Below, in pieces: positions 1 to 22,582 of a stretch of 32,000 bases of DNA. A program made the position numbers and the translations under genes. The notes beneath the pieces are model-generated. The model was not told the origin of the DNA. It did no database searches and worked only from the letters and a program-made list of their open reading frames with translations. How positions within the stretch are numbered: position 1 is the stretch's first letter; each line of letters starts with the position of its first letter. This DNA is from Candidatus Nanosynbacter lyticus (GTDB lineage Bacteria > Patescibacteriota > Saccharimonadia > Saccharimonadales > Saccharimonadaceae). The stretch covers positions 780,001 to 812,000 of the forward strand of contig NZ_CP124549.1 of assembly GCF_030253515.1 (NCBI RefSeq), read 5' to 3'.

Positions 1-2416
1 CTTTCACTGACTGTCGGCCGCGCACCACGCACATCGCCACTACAAACATGCCAACCAGCCGCGATACTAATGAGCTGTCGTCTGCACTTGATTGAGTTGT
101 TGTCGTGAATTCTTCCTCCGGATTGAGCTGGCTGTCGTCCGGCCATAGGCCAGGAGATGGGCGGCTTTTTACGACCAAAACATTGTCACTCACGGCACTC
201 ATTTCGCTATTATAACCGTAACTGTCAACCGCCAAATCATTCTGTTCGTCCACTTCAGATTCTACCGCCTCAGACACTTCAGCAGCAGCAAGTTCTGCTT
301 GCGCTTCAGACAAATCGACGACTGACTCTATGCCACTAGTATCCATAGTTATAGTTTCAACTTCAGCATCCAGACACAACAAATCGCTTTTTTCCGATGC
401 TTTCATAACTATATTGTCACGCTCCTCGCGAGGCATGATGCGCTCCTCTAAAATTTCCACTACTGGCTCATCCAGCTCAACATCAGGTATTAGCTCAACA
501 GCTGGCGAGATAGGAATAACTATCTGCTCTACTGGCTCATAATCATTGGTGACTTCAGGAACTGATACCGCCTTAGAATTGTCCAATTGCCCCGCGGAAT
601 CCATATCAACACTAATCTCGTCGTCCACAGAGGGTTTCAAATCATCGACTTCTTCACGCACCGTAGTTGCCTCCATTGATAGCGCAATCGTCACCATTTC
701 AGCCGAAGATACGTTCAACTCTACTGATGACGGCGCTTGTTGTTCGACAAAAAACACCATATCCTCCTCAGCCCAAGCTTCGTTGTCCTCGCCATATTCA
801 ACGATATCTTGAGCTGATAATGACACAATCACCGGCTGATCAGGCTGCTCTTTCGCTGGAATTGATGCGGCCGCATTAACCATCTTTTCAGTAGATGTCT
901 CGTTTGTTTCGTATTCCGCCGACACATTAACGGCGTCCTCTTGCTCCTGATATGGCGACACATTAGATGCGGTTGGAATTACATGCTTGGGCTGTTCGAC
1001 ATCAACGCCATCGGTCGATTCGACAAAATTATTATAATCCGGCGCCGCATCTATACTAATCTCGCTAGGTTGAGCGTCTGTTGATGCTTTCGTACCAGAA
1101 TTATCAATTGGCCCCGTGGTCGCAGATTCATCCGCCCTTACTGCGTCAAATCGCGCTGCCAGGTGTTGCTGCTCGGAAACTGGCGTAGCACTTTCATCAT
1201 TTTCTGCTGCTCGGCTCGGCTCAAAATTGGCTGATTTTGACCCTGTTATAACAAAAACTTTTTCTTTTTGGCGTTCAATTGATGGTGTTTTTACACTTGA
1301 TGGCGCAGTAGTTTCATCGCCATCATATGTATTTTCCACAACACTATCGACGGGTTTACCTTCGCCAGACAAGAAGTTAGCAGTTTCATTTTTTGGCAAA
1401 GTATTATTCTCGTTAGCGGTTTGAGTATCCTCGCTTGCCCCCGGCGATGACGACACAGTTTTCGTTTGCGTTTGCGTCGGTATGTCTGAAGATTCGAATG
1501 CTGGCTGCTCACTTTCTTTATCTACTGCGTCAGAGATAATAGCAGGAGTTTGCTGTTTTATTTCTATTGACGGACGATTTTCCTCTGTTGGTTCGGTAAA
1601 ATACTCCTCGCCAGATGTATTGACGGACACTTCGCTAACAATTTCTGGCTGGGCTTCTCTAATCTCATCAACATCATCAGCGGCATCTTCCATAACAATT
1701 GCTGATTCCAAAAACAATTGTTCCGCCTCCTTAATATCCGCAGGTTCGTCTGGAGATTCTGTTGTTTCACTAGTCGGGATTTCATCACCTTGATTCGGCG
1801 GCGCAACCTGCTCAATTAGTTTATCCGTCTTATCGTCACTTGTTTCAGTGATATCTGCATTTGTTGAATCCGCCCCGCTATCAGGATTAGCGTAACCCGC
1901 CACGACAATACCGTCATCGTCGTCACTCAGCAAATCTCTTAAATATGATTCGCGTTCTGGCGCTGGCTGCAAATTTTCATTAGCAAAATTGCGCATACGT
2001 AAAATCGGACAGTCGTCGCGTGCTGCGCAACTAGCACAAGCTGCGCTCGCCACACCTTGACATATTGCTGCCCTTCGCTCATCACTCATCTGGTTTTCCG
2101 ACGAGTTAATCTCGCTTTTGCCGGCAAGCGATAATGCGTCAACCGGCGTCAGCACTTTTGAATTACCTTGGCTGCTCGCATCGCTCATCGCGGTGTCAAG
2201 CTTTTCTTTGCCGCCAGCCACCGCTACCAAGTCAAGCTTACCAGCTGCTTCGTCTGTACCAATATTTACTTCTTCACCAATATCATCAATGCCAGACGAA
2301 AAATCCTCACCGCCAGCGCCGCTCCTCAACGACAAAAATACATCAAAACCACCGCCGTTGTTGTCAGCAACGGCTGTCGACGCCAATCCCAATTCAGCCG
2401 TCGCCACCCTGCTCAT
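1..2416 (-). CDS. Hypothetical hyper-acidic low-complexity protein, partial (at least 805 aa visible, C-terminus beyond window start), with an N-terminal C-x7-C-x2-C-x5-CP motif
   Basis: Absent from the ORF track because it has no stop inside the window. I read every minus-strand triplet in the register of ATG 2416..2414 down to position 2 and found no stop. An in-frame stop lies just upstream at 2420..2422. The ATG overlaps the TGA of the upstream CDS (ATGA, 2413..2416). The + strand ORFs listed for 157..2629 are short Ser/Thr-rich mirror images of this frame. The translation starts MSRVATAELGLASTAV and is D/E/S/T/P-rich. Confidence 0.65.
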   Translation of the reverse strand, partial: MSRVATAELGLASTAVADNNGGGFDVFLSLRSGAGGEDFSSGIDDIGEEVNIGTDEAAGKLDLVAVAGGKEKLDTAMSDASSQGNSKVLTPVDALSLAGKSEINSSENQMSDERRAAICQGVASAACASCAARDDCPILRMRNFANENLQPAPERESYLRDLLSDDDDGIVVAGYANPDSGADSTNADITETSDDKTDKLIEQVAPPNQGDEIPTSETTESPDEPADIKEAEQLFLESAIVMEDAADDVDEIREAQPEIVSEVSVNTSGEEYFTEPTEENRPSIEIKQQTPAIISDAVDKESEQPAFESSDIPTQTQTKTVSSSPGASEDTQTANENNTLPKNETANFLSGEGKPVDSVVENTYDGDETTAPSSVKTPSIERQKEKVFVITGSKSANFEPSRAAENDESATPVSEQQHLAARFDAVRADESATTGPIDNSGTKASTDAQPSEISIDAAPDYNNFVESTDGVDVEQPKHVIPTASNVSPYQEQEDAVNVSAEYETNETSTEKMVNAAASIPAKEQPDQPVIVSLSAQDIVEYGEDNEAWAEEDMVFFVEQQAPSSVELNVSSAEMVTIALSMEATTVREEVDDLKPSVDDEISVDMDSAGQLDNSKAVSVPEVTNDYEPVEQIVIPISPAVELIPDVELDEPVVEILEERIMPREERDNIVMKASEKSDLLCLDAEVETITMDTSGIESVVDLSEAQAELAAAEVSEAVESEVDEQNDLAVDSYGYNSEMSAVSDNVLVVKSRPSPGLWPDDSQLNPEEEFTTTTQSSADDSSLVSRLVGMFVVAMCVVRGRQSVK

Positions 2417-3075
2417 TGCTCAAAAAATGTCTCCGTTGAAATATGTGATTCGTCGACGCCAGCGGCGGTTAGTTTTTGCCAAACATCGCGTACAAATGGC
2501 AAGCTGCCACAAACCAGAAAGTGCGCATTACTCGGCACTTCGCTCACAATCTTCGCCACCTCAAACCGCCCGTTATGCCAGCAGTCTGTTTCCTCAACCT
2601 GCTGGCGAGTACTAAACTTGTTGACCTGAATGGATGAGGCTGACAGCTCCTCCGAGAACACCATATATTCTGGCGATTTTTGACTCAAATAGAGAAAGGT
2701 CGGCTGCTTGGCATCCGCCAAAATGCTCCAAATCGGACTCAGCCCGCACCCCGCCGCGATGCCAACCAACGGCCGCTCAGTTTGCGGATTGAAATCGCCG
2801 TACGCTCGGCTAATGTGCAGCGTATCGCTAACGCGGCGCGAACACAAATAGCTGGAGAATTCACCGCCAACATTTTTGACGGTAATTGACATCAGTTCCT
2901 CATGCGGACGCGAAGAAATACTATAGGCCTTGCCTTCGCGCACCTGGCTGCCCTCGATAAACACCGTGATATATTGCCCCGCCATAAAGTCAAACGGCCG
3001 CACGAAATACAGTGTCGTCACCTCAGGATTTTCCTGGCGCACCCGCACAATTTCTACAGTTAGTGAATCACGCAT
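2413..3075 (-). CDS. Ferredoxin-NADP reductase (FNR) family FAD/NAD(P)-binding oxidoreductase, 220 aa
   Basis: The FAD-binding motif is a variant of RxYS (GKAYSISS). The NAD(P)-binding motif has the GxxGxGxxP pattern (GIAAGCGLSPIWS). Length and order match the two-domain FNR fold. It overlaps the nrdG stop by 16 nt and the next gene by ATGA. Confidence 0.8.
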   Translation of the reverse strand: MRDSLTVEIVRVRQENPEVTTLYFVRPFDFMAGQYITVFIEGSQVREGKAYSISSRPHEELMSITVKNVGGEFSSYLCSRRVSDTLHISRAYGDFNPQTERPLVGIAAGCGLSPIWSILADAKQPTFLYLSQKSPEYMVFSEELSASSIQVNKFSTRQQVEETDCWHNGRFEVAKIVSEVPSNAHFLVCGSLPFVRDVWQKLTAAGVDESHISTETFFEQ

Positions 3076-3803
3076 TCCTCGACATACCTTTCCATTATGT
3101 TTTGGGCGGCCCTGAACTCCTCGTCGGTAAAGGTGTGAAACCCGGCAAACTTCGGGCTAATCGTCGTGCCAGTGCGAAAATGCTGCAAGGCAAAGCGTTT
3201 AGCGCCTTTGACCAACTCGCCAATCTTTTCAAAATCCGCCACCTCCAGCTGCTCGCGGACGATCGTCGTCCGAAATTCATGGCCAATTCCCGAATCAATC
3301 ATCAGCCGAACATTGTCTTTGATAGCCTCCAGATCAATCGGCCGCGCTGCAATCTCCACGTATTTTTCTAGCGGCCCCTTGACGTCCATAGCGATAAAGT
3401 CAATCGTCCCCTCCTCGACCATGCCGCGTACTATATCCGGATGCGTGCCATTAGTATCCAGCTTGACATCAAAACCAAGATTCTTGATCATCCGGCACAG
3501 CACCGGCAAATCCTCATTGACCGTCGGCTCGCCGCCAGAAATCACCACGCCGTCTAGCCGACCAACACGCGATTTCAAGAAAATCATCGCCTCCTCAACC
3601 GGGATGCTGGGCGCTAACCGCTCAGGCAATACCAACTCAGGGTTGTGACAGTAGCCGCAGCGCATATTACAGCCAGAGAGAAACAGCGCTGCCGCCACGT
3701 GCCCCGGATAGTCCACCAGCGACAGCTTCTGAATCCCGCCAATCGCCACCTTAAGCTGGGACAGCGACGGCGCAAGCTCGCTGGTGTTCGGCGGCATCGT
3801 CAT
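3060..3803 (-). CDS. nrdG: Anaerobic ribonucleoside-triphosphate reductase activating protein (radical SAM)
   Basis: It has the CxxxCxxC radical-SAM motif (CNMRCGYCHNPE) preceded by SLVDYPG, as is typical of NrdG/PflA-type activases. It lies immediately downstream of nrdD. An SD-like GAGGGAG lies 4 nt upstream of ATG 3803. The start overlaps the nrdD 3' end by 53 nt. Confidence 0.9.
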   Translation of the reverse strand: MTMPPNTSELAPSLSQLKVAIGGIQKLSLVDYPGHVAAALFLSGCNMRCGYCHNPELVLPERLAPSIPVEEAMIFLKSRVGRLDGVVISGGEPTVNEDLPVLCRMIKNLGFDVKLDTNGTHPDIVRGMVEEGTIDFIAMDVKGPLEKYVEIAARPIDLEAIKDNVRLMIDSGIGHEFRTTIVREQLEVADFEKIGELVKGAKRFALQHFRTGTTISPKFAGFHTFTDEEFRAAQNIMERYVEECVIH

Positions 3804-5886
3804 AATGCTCCCTCATGTCAAATTCAGCTTGTTTGCCATTGTTCCACTGAGCAACCGGACGCAAGAAACCAACTACCCGCGAGTAAACCTCAGTCGCTTC
3901 GCCGCAATTCGGACACTCTGGATGCTCGCCGACGATATAGCCGTGATTGGTGCAAATCGAGAAGCTTGGCGTAAAGGTAAAGTACGGCAATTTGTAATTT
4001 TCACAAATCGTTTTGACCAGTTTCTTCAGCGTCTGCGGATCGTCCATGCGCTCACCGAGGAAGAAGTGAATCACCGTGCCGCCCGTGTATTTAGTCTGCA
4101 AATTATCCTGCAAATCCATCAACTCAAACAAGTCGTCGGTGTAATTGACCGGCAAGTGGCTGGAGTTGGTGTAGAACGGATGCTTAACTGCCGCGCCCAA
4201 GCCATTGGCAAAGTGCGCTCGGTCAGGGAAGCTGGCCTTGTCGAGCTGCGCCAAGCGGTAGGTCGTGCCTTCAGCTGGCGTCGCCTCCAGGTTGTAATTA
4301 TTGCCCGTTTCTTTCTGATATTCCACCAAGCGGTCACGCATGAAATCAAGCGTTTTCTCGGCAAACGCCTTACCCTTTTCAGTGCCAATGTCAACGCCCA
4401 GCAAATTCAACGCTGCTTCATTGGTACCGATCAAACCGATGGTCGAGAAGTGATTTTTCCAGTACTCGTTGAAGCGCTTTTTAATATCGCGCAGATAAAA
4501 CTTGGTGTACGGATACAGACTGATGTCCGAATCAGTCAGCTGCTCCAGCACCTTGCGTTTGGTCTCCAGGCTGTCGCGCGCCATATCCATCAGCTCGCCC
4601 AAGCCCTTGAAAAACTCTTTCTCGTTCTTCGATTTCAGCGCTAATCGCGGCAAGTTGATCGTCACCACACCAATTGAGCCGGTCATCGGATTCGAGCCAA
4701 ACAACCCGCCGCCGCGATACTCCAGCTGGCGATTATCGATGCGCAAGCGACAACACATTGAGCGCGCATCCTCTGGATCCATGTCGGAATTGATGAAATT
4801 CGAGAAATACGGAATGCCGTATTTGGCGCTAGCTTCCCAAAGATTTTCAATGACCGGATTATCCCAGTTGAAATCTTTAGTAATATTGACCGTCGGAATC
4901 GGGAAGGTAAAGACCCGGCCGTTGGCGTCGCCCTCAGACAGCACCTCCAGCAGCGCCTTATTAAGCATGTTCATCTCTTCTTGATAATCGCCGTAGTTGG
5001 TGTCCTGCATCTCGCCGCCGATGATCACCGGATTGCCGGCCATATGCTTCGGGCATTCCAGATCAAGCGTGATGTTGGTAAACGGCGTCTGGAAACCAAC
5101 CCGCGTTGGCACGTTAACGTTAAAGACGAATTCTTGCAGCGCTTGCTTAACCTCGTCATAGCTCAGCTTGTCAGCGCGAATGAACGGCGCTAAGAGTGTG
5201 TCAAAATCGGAGAACGCCTGGGCACCAGCCGCCTCGCCCTGCAGGGTGTAGAAAAAATTGACCACTTGCCCAAGAGCTGAACGGAAATGCTTGGCCGGCT
5301 TGGAAGCAACTTTGTTTTTAACGCCAGTGAAACCTTGGCGCAGTAAATCCATCAGATCCCAACCGACACAGTAGACACTCAGTAAATTGAGGTCGTGAAT
5401 ATGCAAATCACCCTCTTTGTGCGCCCGGCCGATTTTCGGCGAATAAATCTTATCCAGCCAGTAGGTCTTGGTAATTTCCGCCGAAACGTAGTTATTCAGG
5501 CCCTGCAAACTATAGCCCATGTTGGAATTTTCTTTGACTTTCCAGTCTAGATTATTGACGTATTTATCGATCAAATCGACGTGCGCATTGGACGTAATTT
5601 CACGCAATTTTTTGTGCTGGTCACGGTAGATGATGTAAGCCTTGGCAGTTTTCTTAAACTTAGAATCAATCAAGGTATCCTCGACAATGTCCTGGATATC
5701 CTCGACGCCCGGCAAGCGTTTTTGGTTGCGGGTTTCTAGTACCGCTAGCACCTTGTCGGTCAGTTTGACGGCCTGTTTGGCGTCAAACTCGCCGGTCTCC
5801 AGGCCCGCCTTCTCGATGGCCTTTTCAATTTTTTTACGGTCAAATTTGACTGTGCGACCGTCGCGTTTTTTGATTGATTTATACAT
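3751..5886 (-). CDS. nrdD: Anaerobic (class III) ribonucleoside-triphosphate reductase, 711 aa
   Basis: The N-terminus is an ATP-cone (MYKSIKKRDGRTVKFDRKKIEKAIEKA). The C-terminus has a Zn-site-like C/H cluster (CTNHGY...ECPNCG) followed by the glycyl-radical motif YSRVVGFLRPV. A strong SD (AAGGAGGGG) lies at 5888..5896. Confidence 0.95.
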   Translation of the reverse strand: MYKSIKKRDGRTVKFDRKKIEKAIEKAGLETGEFDAKQAVKLTDKVLAVLETRNQKRLPGVEDIQDIVEDTLIDSKFKKTAKAYIIYRDQHKKLREITSNAHVDLIDKYVNNLDWKVKENSNMGYSLQGLNNYVSAEITKTYWLDKIYSPKIGRAHKEGDLHIHDLNLLSVYCVGWDLMDLLRQGFTGVKNKVASKPAKHFRSALGQVVNFFYTLQGEAAGAQAFSDFDTLLAPFIRADKLSYDEVKQALQEFVFNVNVPTRVGFQTPFTNITLDLECPKHMAGNPVIIGGEMQDTNYGDYQEEMNMLNKALLEVLSEGDANGRVFTFPIPTVNITKDFNWDNPVIENLWEASAKYGIPYFSNFINSDMDPEDARSMCCRLRIDNRQLEYRGGGLFGSNPMTGSIGVVTINLPRLALKSKNEKEFFKGLGELMDMARDSLETKRKVLEQLTDSDISLYPYTKFYLRDIKKRFNEYWKNHFSTIGLIGTNEAALNLLGVDIGTEKGKAFAEKTLDFMRDRLVEYQKETGNNYNLEATPAEGTTYRLAQLDKASFPDRAHFANGLGAAVKHPFYTNSSHLPVNYTDDLFELMDLQDNLQTKYTGGTVIHFFLGERMDDPQTLKKLVKTICENYKLPYFTFTPSFSICTNHGYIVGEHPECPNCGEATEVYSRVVGFLRPVAQWNNGKQAEFDMREHYDDAAEHQRACAVAVPA

Positions 5887-5970: not shown

Positions 5971-6025
5971 ACACCATATCTAGTGCTTAATATAGAATAT
6001 ACACGCGATATATAGCGTTTGTCAA
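5971..6025 (-). promoter_or_regulatory. nrdD promoter with two NrdR-box-like 16-bp palindromes
   Basis: On the minus strand the -35 is TTGACA (6020..6025), followed by an 18-nt spacer and a -10 of TATATT (5996..6001). Box 2 is ACGCTATATATCGCGT (6002..6017) and fills the spacer. Box 1 is GCACTAGATATGGTGT (5971..5986) and lies just downstream of the -10. Both resemble the NrdR consensus acaCwAtATaTwGtgt. Their centres are 31 bp apart. Confidence 0.6.
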
Positions 6026-6044: not shown

Positions 6045-6584
6045 TTACATATGAGAGGCGGAAGTATTTGTTTCCTCTGATAACGCCAAAATGTCGCAGT
6101 GAATCATATCAATAATCTCTGCCTGAGTCAGCCGTTCGCCAATTCGCCGCTCGCCTGGCACACCCAAAACGTCCTGATCTTTCCACCACTGGCGCATCTC
6201 CGATTCGCCAAATTCATGAGCGTTTGGCTTAGTGGCGTGGCGGCGCACCGTTTCCTCAAATGATATGTCAAAATAATAAATCAGTTTTTCGCCCTGAAAA
6301 TCATCCAGCAGCCGACGCAGCATCGCGCCGTATTTTTTATTGCTCAAAATACCTTCCAGAATCACCGTATAACCAACGTTATTGCCGTACATACATAGAT
6401 CATAAATCAGCTGAATCGCCGGGTTGCTTTCACTGTCTTTCACGCGAAGCATCTCCCGCCGCACCACATCCTGCGATACCAACATCGTGCCGTAGCCTAG
6501 CTGACGCTGGAGCAAGCGCGCCGTACTGGTTTTACCGCAACCAGAATTACCACGGAGAATGATTAGTGGATGAGAGGCTGTCAC
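6045..6584 (-). CDS. P-loop NTPase / small-molecule-kinase-like protein (AAA_33-like), 179 aa
   Basis: It has a Walker A motif (GNSGCGKTS) near the N-terminus and the size of a small kinase fold. The start is GTG with GGAG 5 nt upstream. A TATAAT-like hexamer lies about 23 nt further upstream, between this gene and the permease stop. Confidence 0.65.
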   Translation of the reverse strand: MTASHPLIILRGNSGCGKTSTARLLQRQLGYGTMLVSQDVVRREMLRVKDSESNPAIQLIYDLCMYGNNVGYTVILEGILSNKKYGAMLRRLLDDFQGEKLIYYFDISFEETVRRHATKPNAHEFGESEMRQWWKDQDVLGVPGERRIGERLTQAEIIDMIHCDILALSEETNTSASHM

Positions 6585-12251: not shown

Positions 12252-12584
12252 TTACCGGCGGACGATTTCCAGGGCTTTTTTCAAGATCTCTGTCTCCAGG
12301 CGCGATTTCTCATCATCCATCGCTTCCCGCTGCTTAATCTCCTTTGCCAAATTTTGCCACCACGCCTCTTTTTCCGACTGGCACAGCGCCAGTGACCGCA
12401 CCTCGCCGTCGCGCTTATCTAACATCCCGGCCGCCACCAGGTTATCGACATGCTTCGCCACCGTTGAGACCGACTTATACCCCAGTGCCTGCATAATTTC
12501 CCGCAGCGTCGGGCTATAGCCATTACCCTTGATAAAGCCATCGATGAAATCTAGCAGTATTTTTTGCTTTTTTGTTGGCTGCAT
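12252..12584 (-). CDS. LexA-type winged-helix DNA-binding domain protein without an S24 peptidase domain, 110 aa
   Basis: The N-terminal 65 aa (KQKILLDFIDGFIKGNGYSPTLREIMQALGYKSVSTVAKHVDNLVAAGML) match the LexA N-terminal domain pattern. The rest is a short charged helix (EKEAWWQNLAKEIKQREAMDDEKSRLE). No Ser/Lys dyad region is present. Confidence 0.75.
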   Translation of the reverse strand: MQPTKKQKILLDFIDGFIKGNGYSPTLREIMQALGYKSVSTVAKHVDNLVAAGMLDKRDGEVRSLALCQSEKEAWWQNLAKEIKQREAMDDEKSRLETEILKKALEIVRR

Positions 12585-12629
12585 GCCTTTAGTATAACCT
12601 GCCCGAGTTATTTGCGCTATACTAAAGAG
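12585..12629. promoter_or_regulatory. Divergent promoter region with mirror-symmetric -10 elements (inverted repeat CTTTAGTATA ... TATACTAAAG)
   Basis: The arms lie at 12587..12596 and 12618..12627. Each gives TATACT exactly 6 nt upstream of a start codon: ATG 12584..12582 on the minus strand and GTG 12630 on the + strand. Neither start has an SD. Confidence 0.45.
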
Positions 12630-14117
12630 GTGAAGCGAATATCATCGACGATACGTGTGTGGCTGCTGGCCGCCGTACTGTTTGGCGGCGCACTGTCCTT
12701 GCAGCCGAGCATCAGCCTGGCAATGCTCGATTTTCCATCATTCCGCATTGGACTATATCAAGTGGCGGTGATCGGCGTGGTTGGCTGCGGTCTTGGCATA
12801 ATGGTGCGCCAGCGACTGTGGCCTCGGGGGCGATGGTGGTGGCTGAGCATTGGTATGCTGGCTGTCACCAGTATCGTTGGGCTGTTATTATCTTATGTCC
12901 GAGCGCGTACCGCATTATATACGGCATCGCTTTTATTGCTGCTGGTGGCCGCGGTATGTGCTGCTCTGATGTACCGGTCACTATCAGCGGGCAATCGGCG
13001 GCGCCTCATGACAATTGGCTTGTGGAGCGGCATCGTGTTTGGTGTGTTAGCGGTGCTGCAGCTCATCTTTGCTCACGTTGAGCCAACGGCGTTTGGTACG
13101 CTCTGCTCGGGCTGTCATGCTGGCGTGTTTGGCTTTGTCAGGATTAATCTGTTTGCTGCTGAGCCGCAATTTTTAGCAAGCAGCTTACTGCCAGCCCTGT
13201 TCGTTGGACTGTGCTGGCGAGAGCGACGGCGGCTGGCTGGCTGGAGCGTTTTTGGTAGCAGCGTGGCAATCAGCCTCACGTTTTCGCGCGGCGCGTTTAT
13301 CGCGATAATTGGTGCGGGTATCGTGTATGGTATCGTCCGCTGGTGGCAGCGGTGTAGAAGCGGGTCTCGTTCTATTGACACCGTGGAGCCTATTCGTCGT
13401 GATACGTGGCGTCAGCTCGGCATCATCACGGCCGGGTTTGTGGTTGGATGCACTCTACTGCTGGTATCAGCGGTGGTTCGCTATCACAACACACCGCATA
13501 TTGCCTATAATACTGCAGTGAGCATGCTTGACCAGTTGTCGCTCGGCCGCATTAAATTACCGCAAAAAAATACCATCCCAACGCCGGGCAGCACGCCCTC
13601 ACCGCAGGTACCGCCAACCAGCGAGACTACAGCACCAGAGGCACCGCCCGCCACCCAGCCAAACCCGCTCGCACCATCAGCCAATTTCCAGCCATCGGGT
13701 TTCGTCGCCGCTTCGGCTAATGACCGACTCAACGCCGCTCGACTGGCGCTCCGAGCCTGGGCAGTAAGTCCACGCACCATACTCTTTGGGACTGGCCTTG
13801 GCAATCTCGGCAGCTTTATCCAACACCAGCTGCATCAACCGGTATCGACCGATCACACGGTGTATATTTTCTACGTTTTGCTGCTGAGTAATATTGGCGT
13901 TGTCGGTATGATACCGCTTCTAGCACTGCTTGCCGTCACGCTATGGCGCAGTGGCCGATGGCTACTAAAACCGTGGGGGCAATTTGCCTTACTATTAACG
14001 ACGGCTATCGCCATCCACTTTTGGTTTTTTGGCAGCTTGATCAACTCGGTGCACTGCCTTGCATGGATTGGTATTTTCTTGTATAATCACCCCAAAGGTC
14101 ATGAAGAAGAACTCTGA
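12630..14117 (+). CDS. O-antigen ligase / Wzy_C family polytopic membrane protein
   Basis: It has many TM helices. The loop region ...SLTFSRGAFIAIIGAG... is characteristic of the O-antigen ligase family. The ORF opens at 12564, but that start would overlap the divergent gene. GTG 12630 sits 6 nt after a TATACT hexamer, so I take it as the likely start. The start is uncertain. Confidence 0.8.
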   Translation: MKRISSTIRVWLLAAVLFGGALSLQPSISLAMLDFPSFRIGLYQVAVIGVVGCGLGIMVRQRLWPRGRWWWLSIGMLAVTSIVGLLLSYVRARTALYTASLLLLLVAAVCAALMYRSLSAGNRRRLMTIGLWSGIVFGVLAVLQLIFAHVEPTAFGTLCSGCHAGVFGFVRINLFAAEPQFLASSLLPALFVGLCWRERRRLAGWSVFGSSVAISLTFSRGAFIAIIGAGIVYGIVRWWQRCRSGSRSIDTVEPIRRDTWRQLGIITAGFVVGCTLLLVSAVVRYHNTPHIAYNTAVSMLDQLSLGRIKLPQKNTIPTPGSTPSPQVPPTSETTAPEAPPATQPNPLAPSANFQPSGFVAASANDRLNAARLALRAWAVSPRTILFGTGLGNLGSFIQHQLHQPVSTDHTVYIFYVLLLSNIGVVGMIPLLALLAVTLWRSGRWLLKPWGQFALLLTTAIAIHFWFFGSLINSVHCLAWIGIFLYNHPKGHEEEL

Positions 14118-15525
14118 TTTTTACTTCAAATTGGTGTTGATCGGGCTGGACGTACTGGCGCTAGTTGGTGCGTTCACGGCGGCATACATCATGCGCGTAT
14201 CACTCGACACGCGACCCTTCCATGTGCAAATTGGGGCGCTGGAGTTTATCACGTCGATTGTGCTGATGCTGCCGCTGTGGGTTGTCTTGTTCTCGTTTTT
14301 TGGGCTATACGACCGTGAGCACTACATTCATCCGCTGCGTGAATTTTGGCGACTGGGCATGGCGGCGGTTTGCGGCATCATGATGATGATTTCCTTTAGC
14401 TTCTTTAGCAACACACCGCTCTTTCCGGCCAAGATGGTGGTGATTTATGCGCTGATCATCAGCTTTGTCATCTTGCTCATCCTGCGTAGCGCTGCCAATA
14501 TCGTGCGGCTGCATCTGCTGCGCAAAAACATCGGCATCAAGCGTGTGGCGCTGGTCGGCAATGCCGAATCGACGCGAACGCTGGCAGAGTTTATCAGCGC
14601 CTATCCGTCAACTGGCTTTCATCTCAGTGCTATTGTGTCCAAAGATGAGCTTATCCCGCCGCGACTCAAGGGTTTGCGGCGTTCGACATTGGCATCGGCC
14701 TTGACTCGCGATAAAATTGACGCCATTATTCAGACCGACACTGCTCGCAGCGAAGCGCACTATAACTTGGCGGAGCAGCACTATCTTGATTTTTATCAAG
14801 CGCCAGCCCTCGACGGCCTGATGACGGCGCGCCATACGGTGGAGATTATCAATTCCGTGCCGCTAGCGTACATTCACCCAACGCCGCTAGCTACCGGCTA
14901 CGGACGCGTGGTCAAACGGTTGATGGATCTCATCGGTGCGACCATTGGTATTATCATTACCTCGCCGATTATGCTGCTGGTAGCAATCGCCGTTAAGCTC
15001 GGCGACCCGCGCGGCCCCGTGCTGATGCATGGGCGGCAGCGGCGACGCTTGACCCAGTTTAATCGCCCGTTCAAGGTGTATAAATTTCGTTCACACTACG
15101 CCAAGTTTGACGGCAAAACTGACGAGGAGGTGTTCGCGATGATTGGTAAACCGGAGCTGATCGACGAATATCGGCAAAACGGTGATCGGCTCAACCACGA
15201 CTTTCGCGTCACACCGGTCGGTCGTTTCATTCGCCGGTTTAGTCTCGACGAGCTGCCGCAGTTATTTAACGTTATCAAGGGCGATATTAGCCTCGTTGGG
15301 CCGCGGGCGCTGGTGCCGCACGAGCTGAGCAATTACGAGAAAAAGCACACGCTACTGACGGTCAAGTCTGGCCTGACTGGCCTAGCGGTTGTGTCGGGGC
15401 GGCGCAGTATCGGCTTTGAAGAGCGGCGGCGACTGGATCTTTATTATGTACAAAACTGGAGTTTGTGGCTGGATATCACCATCCTCCTCAAGACCTGCCT
15501 GGTCATCTTTAAGAAGGAGCCGTGA
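14101..15525 (+). CDS. Polyprenyl-phosphate glycosyl-1-phosphate transferase (WbaP/CpsE-like bacterial sugar transferase)
   Basis: The N-terminus has 4-5 TM helices. The C-terminal catalytic domain has [24 protein letters not shown] and KSGLTGLA motifs. ATG 14101 (MKKNSDFYF) is preferred over the track start at 14059. Confidence 0.9.
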
Positions 15526-16670
15526 TGCGCACCCAGCCGACCATTGCGATCGTTCATGACTGGTTGTATGGCGGCGGCGCCGAGCAGGTTGTTTTGGCGC
15601 TCCACCAGCTCTATCCTGAGGCCCCGATTTATACCTCGTACTGCTCGAGAACGTGGCGAGAGAAGCTTGATAACAAGGTGGTGACCGGGTATTTGCAGCA
15701 TTGGCCATTCGCTCAGCTCAGGCGACTGCTGCCGGTACTCAGGCAGCGGTGGTTTGCGCGGCTGGATCTCGGGCAATTTGATATTATCATTTCCAGCTCT
15801 GGTAACGGCGAGGCCAAGTTTATCCGAACCACCCGCCCCGATCAACGACATATCTGTTATTGTCATACGCCGACGCATTTTTATTGGCGGCACTACCAGG
15901 AATACCTGCGTCGACCGAGCTTTCGACCGCGGTGGCTGGCGCGACTGGGCTTGCGGCTGCTAGTCCGGCCCCTCCGGCGACGTGATTATCAGGCGGCGCA
16001 GCGGGTTGATGTTTTCTTGGCTAATTCCACCGCCATTCAAGCTGATATCAAGCAATTCTATGACCGAGACAGTATCGTCGTCTTTCCGCCGGTACAAACA
16101 ACCAGCTTTATGGCGCTCGCAAAAACCAGGCCACGCTCCGTCACACTACCCACCCGGCCGCGCTGCCTGGTGTGGGGGCGACTGGTGCCGATGAAGCGGC
16201 TGGACTTGGTAATTCAGGCCTGTCAGCAGCTTGGTTGGCCACTGGACATCATGGGCGATGGGCCTGATCGCGAGCGGCTGGAGAAGCTGGCGGGTGACTC
16301 GACGCGCTTTCTTGGCTACGTCAGTGACGAGGCCCGGGCTGCCGCCATTCAACAAGCCGACTTATTTATCTTTACCGCCCACGAAGATTTTGGCGTCGCA
16401 CCAGTCGAAGCCTTGGCCGCCGGACTACCGGTGGTAGCGTACCAGGCCGGTGGCGCGCTGGATTATATCAACCCCGGTAAGAACGGCTGGTTTTTTGCTG
16501 AACAAACAGTTGAGAGCTTGGTAGCAACGCTACAGACACTGCCTGGTCAACAGGTCTCGCCGCGGGCCATCGCCGCTTCCGCTAAACCATTTGCCGAACA
16601 TGCCTTTACACTCGCTATAAAGAAAATTATAACCAACGAAAGGAGGGGTGCTCATGCGCATCGCCATTGA
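15525..16670 (+). CDS. Glycosyltransferase family 4 (GT-B, retaining type)
   Basis: It has an E-x7-E motif (EDFGVAPVEA) followed by GLPVVAY. AAGGAG lies 5 nt upstream of ATG 15525. GTG 15522 is an alternative start. Confidence 0.85.
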   Translation: MRTQPTIAIVHDWLYGGGAEQVVLALHQLYPEAPIYTSYCSRTWREKLDNKVVTGYLQHWPFAQLRRLLPVLRQRWFARLDLGQFDIIISSSGNGEAKFIRTTRPDQRHICYCHTPTHFYWRHYQEYLRRPSFRPRWLARLGLRLLVRPLRRRDYQAAQRVDVFLANSTAIQADIKQFYDRDSIVVFPPVQTTSFMALAKTRPRSVTLPTRPRCLVWGRLVPMKRLDLVIQACQQLGWPLDIMGDGPDRERLEKLAGDSTRFLGYVSDEARAAAIQQADLFIFTAHEDFGVAPVEALAAGLPVVAYQAGGALDYINPGKNGWFFAEQTVESLVATLQTLPGQQVSPRAIAASAKPFAEHAFTLAIKKIITNERRGAHAHRH

Positions 16671-17760
16671 TGCTCGTACATTGCGGACGAGCACCGGCCG
16701 TTACGTCGAACGGCTGATTCACTATTTACAAAAAATTGATAACAGGAATGACTATATTATCTTGCTCAAGCCAAAAGACATGGATAGCTGGCAGGCCGAT
16801 AACCCGCGCTTTCAGAAAGTCGCCTGTCCATTTGCTGAGTTTTCATTCGCCGAGCAGCGGGGTTTTAAGAAACAGCTGGAGGAGCTGCGCCCAGATCTCG
16901 TCCATTTTGCAATGGTTCAGCAGCCCGTGTGGTATCACGCCAGCCCAGTCGTCACCACCATGCAAGACCTCACCACCGTTCGGTTCAACAACCCTGACAA
17001 AAACCCGGTAGTCTTTTGGGTGAAGCAGCAAATTTATAAATGGGTCAACAAAAAAGTTGCTAGAAAGTCAGCTCATATTATCACCATCTCTGAATTCGTC
17101 AAGCGTGACTTGGTGGACTTTACCGGGGTCAGTCCAGACAAGATTACCGTGACACTTGAATCCGCTGACGAGCTACCAAAGGGTAATGATCCGGTCAAGG
17201 AGCTGGTTGGCAAAAAGTTCATCATGTATGTTGGCCGGCCGACGCCGCATAAAAATTTGCGGCGACTAATTGACGCATTTGAATTATTGCAACAAAAACA
17301 CCCCGAGCTGACGCTGGCGTTGGCTGGAAAAAAGGACGGTAACTACGCTCGCCATGAAGCGTATGTTACTGAACGCGGTATGACAAATGTCATCTTCACC
17401 GGTTTTGTGTCGGACGAGCAACTGCGCTGGATGTACGAGCATACGGCTGTGTATTGCTTCCCGTCGCTGAGCGAGGGCTTTGGCCTGCCGGGTCTCGAAG
17501 CCATGCTACACGGCGCACCGGTCGCCTCAAGCACCGCCACTTGCCTACCAGAAACACATGGCGAGGCGGCGCATTATTTCGACCCATATAATGTCGAGGA
17601 CATGGCGCGGGCAATTGATGAGATTTTGACTGACGAGAAACGACGCCACGAGCTCATCAAGAAGGGTAAGCAGCACGTCAAAACTTTCTCGTGGCAGCGA
17701 ATGGCCGAGCAGACGTTGGCGGTATATGAGCAGTACGGCCGCCAGAGCACCAACTCATAG
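16654..17760 (+). CDS. Glycosyltransferase family 4 (GT-B)
   Basis: The N-terminus is MRIAIDARTL. The E-x7-E motif is EGFGLPGLEA. AGGAGG lies 7 nt upstream of ATG 16654, so the track start at 16648 is less likely. Confidence 0.9.
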   Translation: MRIAIDARTLRTSTGRYVERLIHYLQKIDNRNDYIILLKPKDMDSWQADNPRFQKVACPFAEFSFAEQRGFKKQLEELRPDLVHFAMVQQPVWYHASPVVTTMQDLTTVRFNNPDKNPVVFWVKQQIYKWVNKKVARKSAHIITISEFVKRDLVDFTGVSPDKITVTLESADELPKGNDPVKELVGKKFIMYVGRPTPHKNLRRLIDAFELLQQKHPELTLALAGKKDGNYARHEAYVTERGMTNVIFTGFVSDEQLRWMYEHTAVYCFPSLSEGFGLPGLEAMLHGAPVASSTATCLPETHGEAAHYFDPYNVEDMARAIDEILTDEKRRHELIKKGKQHVKTFSWQRMAEQTLAVYEQYGRQSTNS

Positions 17761-17837
17761 AGGACAATCCTGGCTCATTCACACGAGGCACTTACGTCTG
17801 CAACCATAACTTTTTAGACTGCGGCTCGGCTACTGGG

Positions 17838-18881
17838 CTATTTTTGCAATTTCTTCGCGATGTCGCCACACTTGGCGGCCACATCCCGCCGTGCCACCAA
17901 CACACCGTCTGGTGTGTTGACCACCACCACATTATCAAGGCCGATGACTGCTACTGGCTTATCCGGCTGCTCGTTGCGAATATAGGTACTAGCGACGTCA
18001 ATGGCATGAATGTTGTCACCGTATGCGTAATTACCCGACTCATCCTTGGCGACCGCGTCGTGTAGATCCTTAAAATTACCGATGTCCATCCAGTCAAAGC
18101 TAGCCGATACCATAGCCAGCTGATGAGCTTTTTCGATCAGGGCGATGTCGATGACTTGATTATCTAGCGCCAGGTACGCGTGATTGTAGGCCTCGCTACC
18201 AAAGTCAGCAATTGACGCCAGCGTCTGATAGTTCGACCACAAATCTGGAGCGCTCTGCTGCATTTCACGCATAAACACCTCGACCGAGCCAACAAAGTAG
18301 CCACAATTCCACAAATAATTTCCCGACTCAACATACCGCTTCGCTGTCTCGTAATTGGGCTTTTCCTTGAATGACTCGACATTATAGACGCCCGCTTGAG
18401 CATCAATCACCCCATCGCGCTGAATATAACCAAAGCCAGTTGACGGGAAGGTCGGCTCAATGCCAATAAGCGTAATACAACCACGCTCGCGAGAAATGCG
18501 CGCTGCTGTAGCAAACGAGTGGGCAAACCCCTGGACGTCACGTACATTATGATCGGAATGAATAAAGGCAATCGGCTCAGTCCGGTCATGGTGGCGATTG
18601 ATATAATCCAGGGCCAACACGATACAGTGCGCCGTCCCCCGCCGTCCCGGCTCGATCAAAAAGGCCTCGTCCGGCAGCTCCGGCAGCTGCGCCCGTAGCG
18701 CCCCGGCGTGGCTGGCCTCGGTCACCACATAAATGGTATCACCGAGCTTTCTGGCCCGGTCATAGGCTTGTTGGACCATAGTGCGCTCACTAGTTAACGC
18801 CAAAAGTTGTTTTGGTTGAGTGGAGGTTGAGAGTGGCCAGAGGCGAGTGCCTGAACCACCAGCAATAATTACAGCTATCAT
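17838..18881 (-). CDS. manC: Mannose-1-phosphate guanylyltransferase (nucleotidyltransferase domain only, no C-terminal cupin/PMI domain), 347 aa
   Basis: The N-terminal signature IIAGGSGTRLWPLS and the overall ManC/CpsB-like layout support the call. Confidence 0.8.
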   Translation of the reverse strand: MIAVIIAGGSGTRLWPLSTSTQPKQLLALTSERTMVQQAYDRARKLGDTIYVVTEASHAGALRAQLPELPDEAFLIEPGRRGTAHCIVLALDYINRHHDRTEPIAFIHSDHNVRDVQGFAHSFATAARISRERGCITLIGIEPTFPSTGFGYIQRDGVIDAQAGVYNVESFKEKPNYETAKRYVESGNYLWNCGYFVGSVEVFMREMQQSAPDLWSNYQTLASIADFGSEAYNHAYLALDNQVIDIALIEKAHQLAMVSASFDWMDIGNFKDLHDAVAKDESGNYAYGDNIHAIDVASTYIRNEQPDKPVAVIGLDNVVVVNTPDGVLVARRDVAAKCGDIAKKLQK

Positions 18882-18894
18882 ACTATATAGTATA
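18882..18894 (-). promoter_or_regulatory. Putative -10 (TATACT) 7 nt upstream of the manC ATG, with no SD
   Basis: The minus strand reads GGTATACTATATAGT-ATG. No purine-rich SD lies between the hexamer and the start. Confidence 0.35.
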
Positions 18895-18959
18895 CCGGGT
18901 TAGGAGTGCAAACGCCACCTATTCTTTAGAGGATCTCGCACCCATATCACAATGGGCCA

Positions 18960-19919
18960 CTAGCGAGACCCGTCAGCGTCAACACCAACCTTGTAACCAA
19001 ATAACATTGCTATAGCTTCTACTCTATCAAAGAACTCCTGTATCCGCTCGATCGTTGGATCTTTTGGCATTAATGTAAGTTCTTTTAGTATCATATCGCG
19101 CAGAGCAGCCTTCTTATCATCAAGCTCGTTCAGCAATTTGATGCGCTGTAGCTCGGCTGCATAGTCCTGAGGAGCCTCAGACTCCCTTCCTAGTAATATG
19201 TGGGCCTGCATTTCAGCTTGTTCGTAGCGCTTTCGGTCAAAATCAAGATTATCCGTTTCCTGCTCAACCATTGACTTTGGATATATCAGGTCGACCTTAA
19301 TTTCACCGACACGCTCTCCATTAGCCATTGCCGCCAGAACAGTATAGTACATATATAGCCAGTTGTTCATTCCCGGTGCATCTGAAGGATAATCTAATAG
19401 GTGCTGCATCCCTTGACGATTGTAGCCCCGTGGACCAGCGAGTGCATCCGCCGGCATCCCTAGTATATACTCAAATAACCAGCCGATCAATTTTTCGGTA
19501 CGCCGCTGGAATGGCGGCATTGATTCTTTCGAAGCCTCCGTCCGTCCGATAACGACAACTGAACACTTCTTCAACATCTCAGCAATCTTGAGTGCAAGAT
19601 GTGCCATTGACTTCTCTGGCTCGAGAGTGATAATTTTATTTCCACCTTGATCTATGACAAATTTTGCACCTTCCCGTCGCTGACTGGCAATTCCCAACCG
19701 ACGAGCAGATCGTACAAAAGCCCCGCGCGCGCGGAAGGCACCTGCGACTTTATCATCTGGCGACCCATCAATCACGACAAGTGGCAATTCTTGTTCGGAC
19801 CACTCCTCTGCAGTATTAAGCGCAGCCTCAAGGCGAACATCGTCAGTATCAGGATAAAACGTCGCCGTCACTCCGACAGCCGGTGCTCCCTCTATAGGAG
19901 GGCTATTCCTTGGACTCAT
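18960..19919 (-). CDS. Divergent GT-A-fold (Dpm1/GpgS-like) glycosyltransferase-like protein with a charged helical C-terminal tail, 319 aa
   Basis: The order of motifs parallels GT2 enzymes. LPLVVIDGSPDD corresponds to the VDdgStD position. ITLEPEK falls at the DxD position. VVVIGRTE follows. ALAGPRGYNR corresponds to the GFRa position. GERVGEIKVDLIYP follows. This assignment is by eye only. Confidence 0.5.
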   Translation of the reverse strand: MSPRNSPPIEGAPAVGVTATFYPDTDDVRLEAALNTAEEWSEQELPLVVIDGSPDDKVAGAFRARGAFVRSARRLGIASQRREGAKFVIDQGGNKIITLEPEKSMAHLALKIAEMLKKCSVVVIGRTEASKESMPPFQRRTEKLIGWLFEYILGMPADALAGPRGYNRQGMQHLLDYPSDAPGMNNWLYMYYTVLAAMANGERVGEIKVDLIYPKSMVEQETDNLDFDRKRYEQAEMQAHILLGRESEAPQDYAAELQRIKLLNELDDKKAALRDMILKELTLMPKDPTIERIQEFFDRVEAIAMLFGYKVGVDADGSR

Positions 19920-19953
19920 GCTCTCATTTTAACACAAAAGTTTAATTTGTCAA
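19920..19953 (-). promoter_or_regulatory. Sigma-70-like promoter ending 6 nt before the ATG (leaderless-type)
   Basis: The minus strand reads TTGACA (19948..19953), a 16-nt spacer, TGT-TAAAAT (-10 at 19926..19931), GAGAGC, then ATG 19919. Confidence 0.5.
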
Positions 19954-19968
19954 TAACAAATCTGGTCT

Positions 19969-20787
19969 CTACCCTTCAAAAACGCTCTGTACGAACGATA
20001 CCGCGTCTGCTACACGCTTCACGTTCTCACCCTGTTCGCCCGGGCGCATTTCGATTGACACCACGCCCTCATAGCCAATATATTTCAAGGCATCAGCTGC
20101 AGCACGATAATCAACATCGTCTCGATCATAAACTCGATCAAGCATCGGAGCGCTAACGTGAAAATGCTTCAAGATATCGCCATTGTTTCGTATCGATTCG
20201 CCAATATCATCGCCAGCTAACGCCATACACGCCGTATCAAGATGCAGACCGATCCCCTCCGAGTTAATCGTACGAACAAGCCGCGCACCTTCATCCGCCG
20301 TTGTCACGTAGTCACAATTGTATTGGGGGGCGTTTGGTTCGATACAGAGCATGGTATTATGCTGCTTGGCAACATCACCAAGCTCGGCAAAGAAGCGGCT
20401 TGCGATGCTGTCCGCCTCTTCTACTGACATCGCACCGCGCTGTCGATTCTTTGGCGAACCAAACACCAATCGACCAGCACCCATATCCCCAGCCAATCGC
20501 AAAAAGTCAGCCATATATTGCCGCATCTCGTCGCGAAGTTCGCTTGATTCAAATAGCTTTAGGTCAGGGCGCGCAAACAACATCGACTGAAAAGCCACAA
20601 CCTCAATGTCGTACCCTCTCCACCACTCGACATATTCGTTAATTTGCTCGGGAGTCGCCTTGGTTGGATCATCCCAACGCTTCGTCGGCGCGATCTCGAC
20701 ACAGCGTACACCAAGCTCCCGCAGCTTTGCGGCGACCTCCGCCTCTTCTTCATTTGTCCATGCGATGTTCGATATAGCTAGTTTCAT
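19969..20787 (-). CDS. Xylose-isomerase-like TIM-barrel protein (sugar phosphate isomerase/epimerase family), 272 aa
   Basis: The pattern is typical of the AP_endonuc_2 / xylose isomerase-like family: MKLAISNIAW...GVRCVEIAP...LVFGSPK...LCIEPN...GLHLDTAC...VSIEM. Confidence 0.85.
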   Translation of the reverse strand: MKLAISNIAWTNEEEAEVAAKLRELGVRCVEIAPTKRWDDPTKATPEQINEYVEWWRGYDIEVVAFQSMLFARPDLKLFESSELRDEMRQYMADFLRLAGDMGAGRLVFGSPKNRQRGAMSVEEADSIASRFFAELGDVAKQHNTMLCIEPNAPQYNCDYVTTADEGARLVRTINSEGIGLHLDTACMALAGDDIGESIRNNGDILKHFHVSAPMLDRVYDRDDVDYRAAADALKYIGYEGVVSIEMRPGEQGENVKRVADAVSFVQSVFEG

Positions 20788-20802
20788 ATGGTAATTATAC
20801 CA
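20788..20802 (-). promoter_or_regulatory. Extended -10 promoter TGGTATAAT, 6 nt before the ATG (leaderless-type)
   Basis: The minus strand reads TGG-TATAAT (20794..20799), TACCAT, then ATG 20787. No SD is present. Confidence 0.5.
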
Positions 20803-20818
20803 CTATTTATCCTATAGG

Positions 20819-21700: not shown

Positions 21701-21715
21701 GCCCGCATTATACCA
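21701..21715 (-). promoter_or_regulatory. Extended -10 promoter TGGTATAAT, 6 nt before ATG 21700
   Basis: The minus strand reads TGG-TATAAT (21707..21712), GCGGGC, then ATG 21700. The 9-mer is the same as at 20794..20802. Confidence 0.5.
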
Positions 21716-21718
21716 TGA

Positions 21719-22480: not shown

Positions 22481-22582
22481 AATATATTCCTCCTATGTCT
22501 CATTATGTCAAATTCCATATAAAACACAACGATGGCCAGTATGGACATGGAGCGATATCAATTATAGAATGGTTTAGGCACT

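Follow-up and report, generated by a model that had tools for sequence, protein, structure and literature searches.

In Candidatus Nanosynbacter lyticus, the genes for the anaerobic (class III) ribonucleotide reductase (RNR), nrdD and nrdG, are followed on the same strand by a gene for an FNR-like flavoprotein and by a long open reading frame (ORF) whose start overlaps the flavoprotein stop codon. We analysed this ORF in a stretch of 32,000 nucleotides (nt) of contig NZ_CP124549.1 (positions 780,001 to 812,000 of the forward strand; hereafter, the window), where it runs along the minus strand from position 2416 to the left edge. The ORF is a real gene under selection and the fourth, translationally coupled cistron of the operon. 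Its product joins an N-proximal module with four invariant cysteines (the Cys4 module) to a long, highly variable linker and a C-terminal helix. We tentatively propose that this protein is a lineage-specific redox partner of the FNR-like flavoprotein, probably with an iron-sulfur (Fe-S) cluster on its four cysteines, and that it may supply electrons to NrdG or NrdD.

The anaerobic RNR is reported to be among the genes unique to mammal-associated Saccharibacteria, in which it is likely an adaptation to low-oxygen host niches; nrdD was probably acquired horizontally, and its nearest relatives outside the Saccharibacteria belong to Proteobacteria and Elusimicrobia (PMC7427843). In the group-1 oral lineages, nrdDG is always accompanied by a gene for a bare FNR flavoprotein and a gene for the Cys4 protein. 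If NrdG or NrdD draws its electrons from this pair, this would explain how class III RNR is activated in an ultra-small epibiont, and the few class III reductant systems known so far would be joined by one with a non-homologous carrier. The redox-partner prediction is testable because genetic manipulation is now possible in Nanosynbacter lyticus TM7x and Southlakia epibionticum (PMC10633639). Additionally, the gene offers a natural experiment, in which a small, strongly constrained module is combined with a linker of about 40 to about 750 residues that flips between acidic and basic and recombines between strains.

The fourth cistron of the class III RNR operon

The minus-strand frame from position 2416 to position 2 comprises 805 sense codons and no stop (translation of window positions 2..2416); the expectation for a frame of this length to stay open by chance is (61/64)^805, or about 1e-17. 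The ORF is absent from the open-reading-frame listing because its frame passes the window edge. Near-identical contigs, which were located by searching with the complete neighbouring gene, place the stop one codon past this edge (...RGRQSVKV, then the stop), so the full protein has 806 amino acids (aa). The window copy is identical at 805/805 residues to P0002, the 806-aa protein of an 823,929-bp contig. The features of the operon are as follows.

1..2416, minus strand: coding sequence of the Cys4-linker-helix protein, with 805 codons in the window and the last sense codon and stop just beyond position 1
2413..2416, minus strand: ATGA start/stop overlap of the ORF and the FNR-like reductase gene, for translational coupling, kept in related loci
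2413..3075, minus strand: stand-alone FNR-like FAD/NAD(P)H oxidoreductase of 220 aa that lacks any Fe-S or heme domain
3060..3803, minus strand: nrdG, radical-SAM activase of class III RNR (TIGR02495, 1.6e-56), overlapping the reductase gene by 16 nt
3751..5886, minus strand: nrdD, class III RNR with ATP-cone (NF006126, 1059 bits) and finger loop SMCCR
5996..6025, minus strand: best sigma-70-like promoter match (11/12), upstream of nrdD

Overlaps run through all four cistrons (window 2413-5886): nrdD and nrdG share up to 53 nt when the longest nrdG ORF is taken, nrdG and the reductase gene 16 nt, and the reductase gene and the ORF 4 nt. An earlier description of this DNA, made from its letters alone (the preliminary description), had reported an open frame of at least 805 codons missing from the ORF track at the window edge, an ATGA at 2413..2416, and a place as fourth cistron after nrdD, nrdG and the reductase; the extension to 806 aa refines the first of these statements, and the others are confirmed, the last of them by the family matches of the three upstream genes. 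NrdG also carries a C-terminal extension of about 37 aa past the TIGR02495 profile.

Upstream of the ORF on its own strand, no promoter-like site comparable to that of nrdD was found, and matches to an internal promoter or terminator for the ORF occurred only at chance level (for terminator-like matches in the region, 7 observed versus 6.9 expected by chance). One terminator candidate, a 7-bp GC-rich stem-loop followed by GGTGGTTTTG, is located at 2354-2374 of the minus strand, 42 nt into the ORF, and is also kept at L001:10702-10722. This stem-loop could attenuate read-through from the reductase gene. Upstream of nrdD (minus strand, 5972-6017), we localized two 14-bp near-palindromes, CGCTATATATCGCG (6017-6004) and CACTAGATATGGTG (5985-5972), whose centres are 32 bp apart and which overlap the promoter-like site at 6025..5996. 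They resemble tandem NrdR boxes and are candidates for such sites. Directly upstream of the nrd promoter lies a gene for a 179-aa P-loop kinase-like protein (6045-6584, minus strand; AAA_33; NCBIfam PRK06762 'hypothetical protein', 2e-56), whose position is kept in the closely related loci L001, L011, L013 and L014 and not in the distant loci.

Using the reductase as the query against contigs of one genome per species, we obtained 80 loci, all of them (80/80) from Saccharibacteria, namely Nanosynbacter and oral taxa 348 and 488. The coupled ORF, starting in the region of the reductase stop codon, was present in 79/79 informative species-level loci; the 80th is uninformative because its contig ends there, and one of the 79 has an assembly frameshift, with the ORF present there too. 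In the distant lineages L016, L017 and L019, the order nrdD-nrdG-reductase-ORF and the 4-nt overlap are kept between entirely different flanking genes, at identities to the window of 83-84% for NrdD, 64-70% for NrdG, 59-67% for the reductase and about 30% for the ORF product. Thus, the ORF is co-located and co-oriented with nrdD and nrdG across diverged genomes, which is the mark of an accessory gene, and the orthologue that the preliminary description had proposed to look for behind nrdDG and the reductase occurs even at this low identity.

An exhaustive HMMER scan of 1.84 billion cluster representatives retrieved 43 related representatives only; the Cys4 protein family is therefore narrow. 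It is confined to oral Saccharibacteria, and the homologues, from Saccharibacteria (TM7), carry 'hypothetical protein' as their sole name. Searches against Pfam and NCBIfam (E<=10, on five allele types), PADLOC and PHROGs matched no family for any allele type, in agreement with the earlier view that the protein is not a known RNR accessory factor. PDB sequence searches with residues 1-179 and with a 13-sequence module profile gave noise alone (E >= 0.26). Membership in anti-phage defence or in a phage found no support, with zero PADLOC or PHROGs matches despite the variable defence island that adjoins the ORF in related contigs. A literature search on the exact cysteine spacing returned nothing, and the literature consulted is silent on the ORF, mentioning just nrdD (PMC7427843).

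The Cys4 module, the linker and the C-terminal helix

Based on the conservation among relatives and on structure prediction, the product of the ORF is divided into the following parts.

2324..2350, minus strand: N-terminal island GFDVFLSLR, residues 23-31, conserved in Nanosynbacter-type alleles only
2210..2236, minus strand: island LDLVAVAGG, residues 61-69, with invariant D62, L63, V64, A65, V66, A67 and G69
1892..2083, minus strand: Cys4 module, residues 112-175, with C-x7-C-x2-C-x5-CP, then a helix, QPxPERxSYLxxLLxDD and VVAGY
2060-2062, 2036-2038, 2027-2029 and 2009-2011, minus strand: codons of Cys119, Cys127, Cys130 and Cys136, respectively
149..1891, minus strand: acidic, non-repetitive linker, predicted disordered, residues 176-756, mosaic between strains and absent from a 135-aa allele
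110..148, minus strand: short linear motif LWPDDSQLNPEEE, residues 757-769, conserved and placed shortly before the C-terminal helix
23..70, minus strand: C-terminal hydrophobic helix LVSRLVGMFVVAMCVV, residues 783-798, possibly a tail anchor of marginal strength or a helix that binds the membrane or a partner
2..22, minus strand: basic C-terminal tail RGRQSVK(V), following the helix

In the window protein, the four cysteines (Cys119, Cys127, Cys130 and Cys136) lie within ICQGVASAACASCAARDDCP, encoded at 2006..2065. They were found in 197/197 sequences scored for the motif, comprising 120/120 close homologues and 77/77 species ORFs. The C-x2-C-x5-C part is invariant in all scored sequences, while the fourth cysteine is located 7 residues upstream in most of them and 8-9 or 2 residues upstream in the rest. 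In 23/120 close homologues, the motif takes the variant form C-x2-C-x2-C-x5-C and is placed about 12 residues farther upstream. The conserved module spans about 64 residues and consists of the Cys4 motif, CP[IL]L, a helix, QPxPERxSYLxxLLxDD and, about 35 residues past the last cysteine, [IV]V[VI]AGY.

The ratio of nonsynonymous to synonymous divergence (dN/dS) was estimated for the window against five related loci. It was 0.02-0.04 for nrdD and nrdG and 0.12 or less for the reductase gene. Within the ORF, values of 0.02-0.15 were obtained for the Cys4 segment of like-for-like alleles, 0.16-0.44 for the C-terminal 70 codons and 0.19-0.78 for the linker. The Cys4 segment is under strong purifying selection, and the linker is weakly constrained. 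The cysteine cluster that the preliminary description had placed at residues 119-137 or thereabouts is where it was said to be, its four cysteines are invariant, and the conserved parts of the gene evolve as coding sequence, with dN/dS well below 1.

Within single strain pairs, some segments of the ORF are identical in nucleotide sequence (dS = 0) and others are saturated, and species differ in which N-module type they combine with which C-helix type; both observations indicate modular recombination. Just downstream of the ORF, past the left edge of the window, otherwise syntenic strains carry differing defence or mobile islands: GmrSD, Fic, an N6/N4 methylase and SMODS+SLATT at L001:13153-20663; RadC, Fic, a methylase, SLFN/AlbA and ResIII at L003:6470-13648; GmrSD, RadC and a type I restriction-modification (RM) system at L011:10461-18412; and an SNF2 helicase and DUF3800 at L014:10730-16167. 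The ORF marks the border at which the core genome gives way to the variable genome, and it is itself recombinant.

A mosaic gene next to highly variable defence islands, poorly conserved over most of its length, could also be a functionless ORF that hitch-hikes or decays and is open merely by its position at the recombination-prone boundary of the nrd operon. This explanation is effectively refuted by an ORF that stays intact in all informative loci, at lengths from 135 to 925 aa, by the presence of the four cysteines in every scored sequence, by the dN/dS values of the module and of the C-terminal tail, and by a linkage kept across lineages with different flanking genes.

The window protein contains 21.2% D+E and has a net charge of -121. 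Its densest acidic stretch, starting at residue 211, holds 25 D/E in 77 residues, exactly the count given in the preliminary description. A full-length AlphaFold2 model from a 30-sequence alignment has a mean pLDDT of 34, which makes it unsuited to fold search; it predicts a protein that is almost wholly disordered, as had been suspected, with weak helices at residues 112-163 and a C-terminal helix at residues 778-805 as the exceptions. No tandem repeats were found in the acidic region. Across species, the linker keeps its top residue at just 25-45% of positions, the relatives range from 135 to 925 aa in length, and in some lineages the linker is basic instead of acidic.

The 135-aa basic 'mini' allele is located at L029:6657-7067 (TM7 oral taxon 348 SAG2; proteins P0150 and P0282-P0295) and is made up of the module, an amphipathic helix and, between them, a linker rich in Lys and Pro. 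It is very abundant in public data; 130 proteins fall into its cluster, one of them on at least 1,000 contigs. The reductase that adjoins it is 94% identical to that of the window, and the allele has been exchanged between close relatives by replacement, not by gradual divergence. Because this allele lacks the acidic body beside so similar a reductase, the giant acidic body is dispensable for the conserved function, which is thereby located in the module. The hyper-acidic body, which the preliminary description had made its headline, is therefore the least conserved part of the protein and an expendable one.

In all complete large alleles except that of L052, LWPDDSxLNPEE is followed by a C-terminal helix of the pattern [W/L]-L-x-[K/Q/R]-L-[V/I]-G-x-[V/L]-A-V. 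Its uninterrupted apolar run measures 10-13 residues, always with K, Q or R nearby. A simple Hessa-scale sum over the best 19-mers of the large alleles gave +2 to +5 kcal/mol (+4.8 for the best of the window) and about +10 kcal/mol for the mini and P0156 alleles; in these basal alleles, the helix is clearly amphipathic. Given the short apolar run and the positive sums, a transmembrane (TM) helix is only a possibility, and the segment is compatible with a tail anchor of marginal strength, with peripheral attachment to the membrane and with docking. Thus, the hydrophobic helix that had been noticed at the window edge exists, while its reading as a TM helix is marginal. A surface or secreted protein was rejected by inference from the lack of a signal peptide and the cytoplasm-type Cys4 module.

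This combination of parts might also belong to a scaffold or adaptor, in which a zinc-stabilised Cys4 domain docks to the product of another operon gene and the complex is held at the membrane or another structure by the C-terminal helix; the linker would act as a spacer or entropic bristle, and no electron would pass through the module. A Zn(Cys)4 site is equally compatible with the four invariant cysteines, and short linear motifs such as GFDVFxSLR, LDLVAVAGG and LWPDDSxLNPEE, together with a conserved C-terminal helix, are typical of scaffold or tether proteins. A precedent is the cysteine-rich zinc finger that has been reported to be linked with turnover in class II RNRs (PMC5704485). Nevertheless, the module is predicted to be helical, being neither a zinc knuckle nor a ribbon, and the helix that would serve as the tether is marginally hydrophobic, and amphipathic in the basal alleles. 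Moreover, a zinc scaffold would leave unexplained a reductase without an acceptor domain, given that its relatives have one. We consider this explanation unlikely.

The module model, built alone from 14 diverse sequences, is a helical hairpin of moderate confidence (pLDDT 66), in which the first helix would hold three of the cysteines and the fourth would cap the second helix. With this model, Foldseek returned 0 matches in PDB and none of significance in BFVD (viral models). In the sensor clusters of FNR and WhiB, the ligands are spaced as C-x2-C-x5-C with one remote cysteine. An O2-labile [4Fe-4S] cluster on the module might therefore act as an oxygen or redox sensor by the logic of those proteins, controlling the expression or activity of NrdD and NrdG, with the flavoprotein keeping or resetting its redox state. 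The product of the operon is oxygen-sensitive, McLean et al. tie the enzyme to low-oxygen host niches (PMC7427843), and the strongly basic linkers of the mini and P0156 alleles could bind nucleic acid. However, a conserved role in DNA binding is hard to reconcile with a linker whose net charge is -121 in one allele and basic in others, searches revealed no DNA-binding domain, and the tight translational coupling to the reductase fits a stoichiometric partner better than a regulator. Homology to the two sensors was ruled out by hhalign, with a probability of 0.6% against M. tuberculosis WhiB1 (an approximate sequence) and 0.2% against E. coli FNR; additionally, Pfam searches at E<=10 with the module, the full-length protein and the 135-aa allele did not match the Whib domain (PF02467). 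A sensor thus seems rather improbable.

Proposed electron transfer to the class III RNR

The reductase consists of an FNR module and nothing else. By contrast, Hmp (flavohemoglobin), Hcr, BenC, PaaE and NqrF, its best relatives in NCBIfam and PDB, all pass single electrons to a heme or [2Fe-2S] acceptor in the same chain. Most glycyl-radical activases have an auxiliary ferredoxin domain, which is missing from the activases of class III RNR, and in E. coli the electron source of PFL-AE in vivo is flavodoxin (PMC13450708). Because the relatives of the reductase hold their acceptor in-chain and NrdG needs a one-electron donor, the simplest interpretation is that the Cys4 module is both the missing acceptor and the carrier.

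In the mechanism that we propose, a hydride would pass from NAD(P)H onto the FAD of the flavoprotein, which would then release electrons one at a time. They would be received by a metal centre, most likely an Fe-S cluster, that the N-proximal module binds through its four invariant cysteines. The reduced module would feed the class III RNR system, and its most likely sink would be the [4Fe-4S] cluster of NrdG; once reduced, this cluster would cleave S-adenosylmethionine (SAM) and install the glycyl radical, as happens in E. coli with flavodoxin and flavodoxin reductase. The thiol-dependent turnover of an NrdD2/3-type NrdD would be a less likely sink. The long acidic linker would be a freely evolving disordered spacer, and the C-terminal helix may localise or dock the protein, with the membrane or a partner as its target. 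In this scheme we infer that the module binds a metal or cluster, that it contacts the reductase, which sink receives the electrons, and that the protein associates with the membrane.

The redox-partner assignment is favoured because the overlapping genes follow one strong promoter-like site and the four-gene unit is kept between different flanks; because the ORF is coupled to the reductase gene in every informative locus, with invariant cysteines and a low dN/dS in the module; and because module and C-terminal helix are what the 135-aa allele retains beside a nearly unchanged reductase. Other observations weigh against it. In the module model, the three helix cysteines would be too distant for a shared cluster unless the helix kinks, and neither sequence nor fold resembles known Fe-S, rubredoxin, thioredoxin or zinc-finger families. 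Zinc is equally able to occupy the Cys4 sites. A disordered tail of about 600 aa and a hydrophobic C-terminus are unexpected in a diffusible electron carrier. No fusion to the reductase module that would support a physical partnership was found among the 120 listed of 164 reductase matches, all of them Saccharibacteria proteins of about 160-220 aa, a result that is neutral to the assignment. With these points on both sides, we put the assignment forward as the most plausible explanation, though a tentative one.

The NrdD residues 376-380 are SMCCR, i.e., a Met plus a Cys-Cys pair, with the extra Cys of the NrdD2/3 type. The finger-loop Cys is a mark of thiol-dependent NrdD2/3 as opposed to formate-dependent NrdD1 (PMC4493059), and its motif places this NrdD with the former. 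The NrdD proteins of L017 and L019 have the same SMCCR motif without the ATP-cone (620 aa vs 711 aa). Reducing systems of class III RNR include thioredoxin, for NrdD2, and NrdH, for NrdD3 (PMC9176816). Taken with the finger loop, these systems suggest that the CxxC of the module might cycle between dithiol and disulfide and re-reduce the active-site Cys of NrdD, as a private thioredoxin- or NrdH-like protein recharged via the flavoprotein. The operon-encoded reductant system that Methanosarcina barkeri reportedly possesses would be a parallel. This dithiol scheme is improbable, since no thioredoxin-fold signal was obtained, since all four cysteines are invariant and not just one CxxC pair, and since no FNR-family flavoprotein is known to reduce disulfides directly.

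A more far-reaching form of the redox-partner assignment is that the module is an unprecedented Fe-S fold, through which Saccharibacteria, together with the minimal FNR flavoprotein, would have a private means of activating class III RNR with NAD(P)H. In Nanosynbacter-type lineages, the module would have been placed on a long, disordered leash, polyanionic and recombining, that is itself anchored at the C-terminus. We doubt that it holds in this full form. If it did, RNR activation would be spatially confined (e.g., to the membrane or the host-contact face) or oxygen-gated, and the protein would represent a new electron-carrier family and a new organisation of ribonucleotide reduction.

Surrounding genes and comparison with known systems

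Farther along the window, positions 12564-30321 hold a large cell-envelope glycosylation cluster with Bac_transf, three GT1/GT4 and GT2 glycosyltransferases, an NTP transferase, sugar isomerase-like TIM barrels and an epimerase. Interspersed among these genes are six ORFs of 319-705 aa with no Pfam match, located as follows.

12564-14117: ORF without Pfam match
18960-19919: ORF without Pfam match
22583-24700: ORF without Pfam match
24701-26065: ORF without Pfam match
26858-27862: ORF without Pfam match
28957-30321: ORF without Pfam match

The WhiB-like (Wbl) proteins of Actinobacteria and actinophages share with the Cys4 protein the C-x2-C-x5-C motif with one upstream cysteine and a helical prediction, and the 135-aa allele matches them in size and in its basic tail. 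In Wbl proteins, the upstream cysteine lies some 14-29 residues from C-x2-C-x5-C, whereas here it is 2-9 residues away. The G[VI]WGG turn is absent here, and the Cys4 protein belongs to another phylum and to a fixed operon context. Of the WhiB likeness proposed in the preliminary description, only the C-x2-C-x5-C spacing stands, since Pfam, hhalign and Foldseek all came out negative. The same description had compared the terminal CP with ferredoxin motifs; the CP is present, but bacterial ferredoxins (Fer4) have C-x2-C-x2-C-x3-CP, in contrast to C-x7-C-x2-C-x5-CP here (or C-x2-C-x2-C-x5-C in one allele type), and the module has no Fer4 Pfam match and is predicted to be a helical hairpin. From thioredoxin and NrdH, the protein differs in the lack of any Pfam, NCBIfam, PDB sequence or fold match.

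At its C-terminus, the protein resembles tail-anchored proteins and those with C-terminal amphipathic targeting helices (MinD and FtsA) in that it lacks a signal peptide and ends in a lone helix, after which only a few basic residues follow. It differs from tail-anchored proteins in the marginal hydrophobicity of this helix (+2 to +5 kcal/mol, and about +10 in the basal alleles).

Regarding the reductase, Hcr and PaaE carry an Fe-S domain directly C-terminal of the FNR module, which is the position at which the Cys4 gene starts here. Unlike in Hcr, PaaE, BenC, NqrF and flavohemoglobin, the acceptor here would be on a separate, coupled polypeptide, and it is not a plant-type [2Fe-2S] ferredoxin domain.

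The class III RNR of Methanosarcina barkeri is reported to have an operon-encoded NrdH-like redoxin and ferredoxin:disulfide reductase (Wei et al. 2015). Both systems would then be class III RNR loci with their own Cys- or Fe-S-based electron supply and an NrdD with an extra active-site Cys. In contrast to that system, the product of the ORF has no likeness to the thioredoxin fold or to FTR-like proteins, and electrons would enter here through an NAD(P)H-type FNR flavoprotein instead of ferredoxin.

A functional parallel would be E. coli flavodoxin with Fpr (NADPH:flavodoxin reductase), the reducing system of the glycyl-radical activases PFL-AE and NrdG, in which an FNR-family flavoprotein and a small one-electron carrier likewise serve a radical-SAM activase without an auxiliary ferredoxin domain (PMC13450708). 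In the operon described here, however, the carrier would be a non-homologous Cys4 module, encoded with the nrd genes, translationally coupled to its reductase and continued by a long disordered linker that leads to a C-terminal helix. That glycyl-radical and class III RNR enzymes can have reductant systems dedicated to them is known; a non-homologous carrier with such an unusual architecture would be new.

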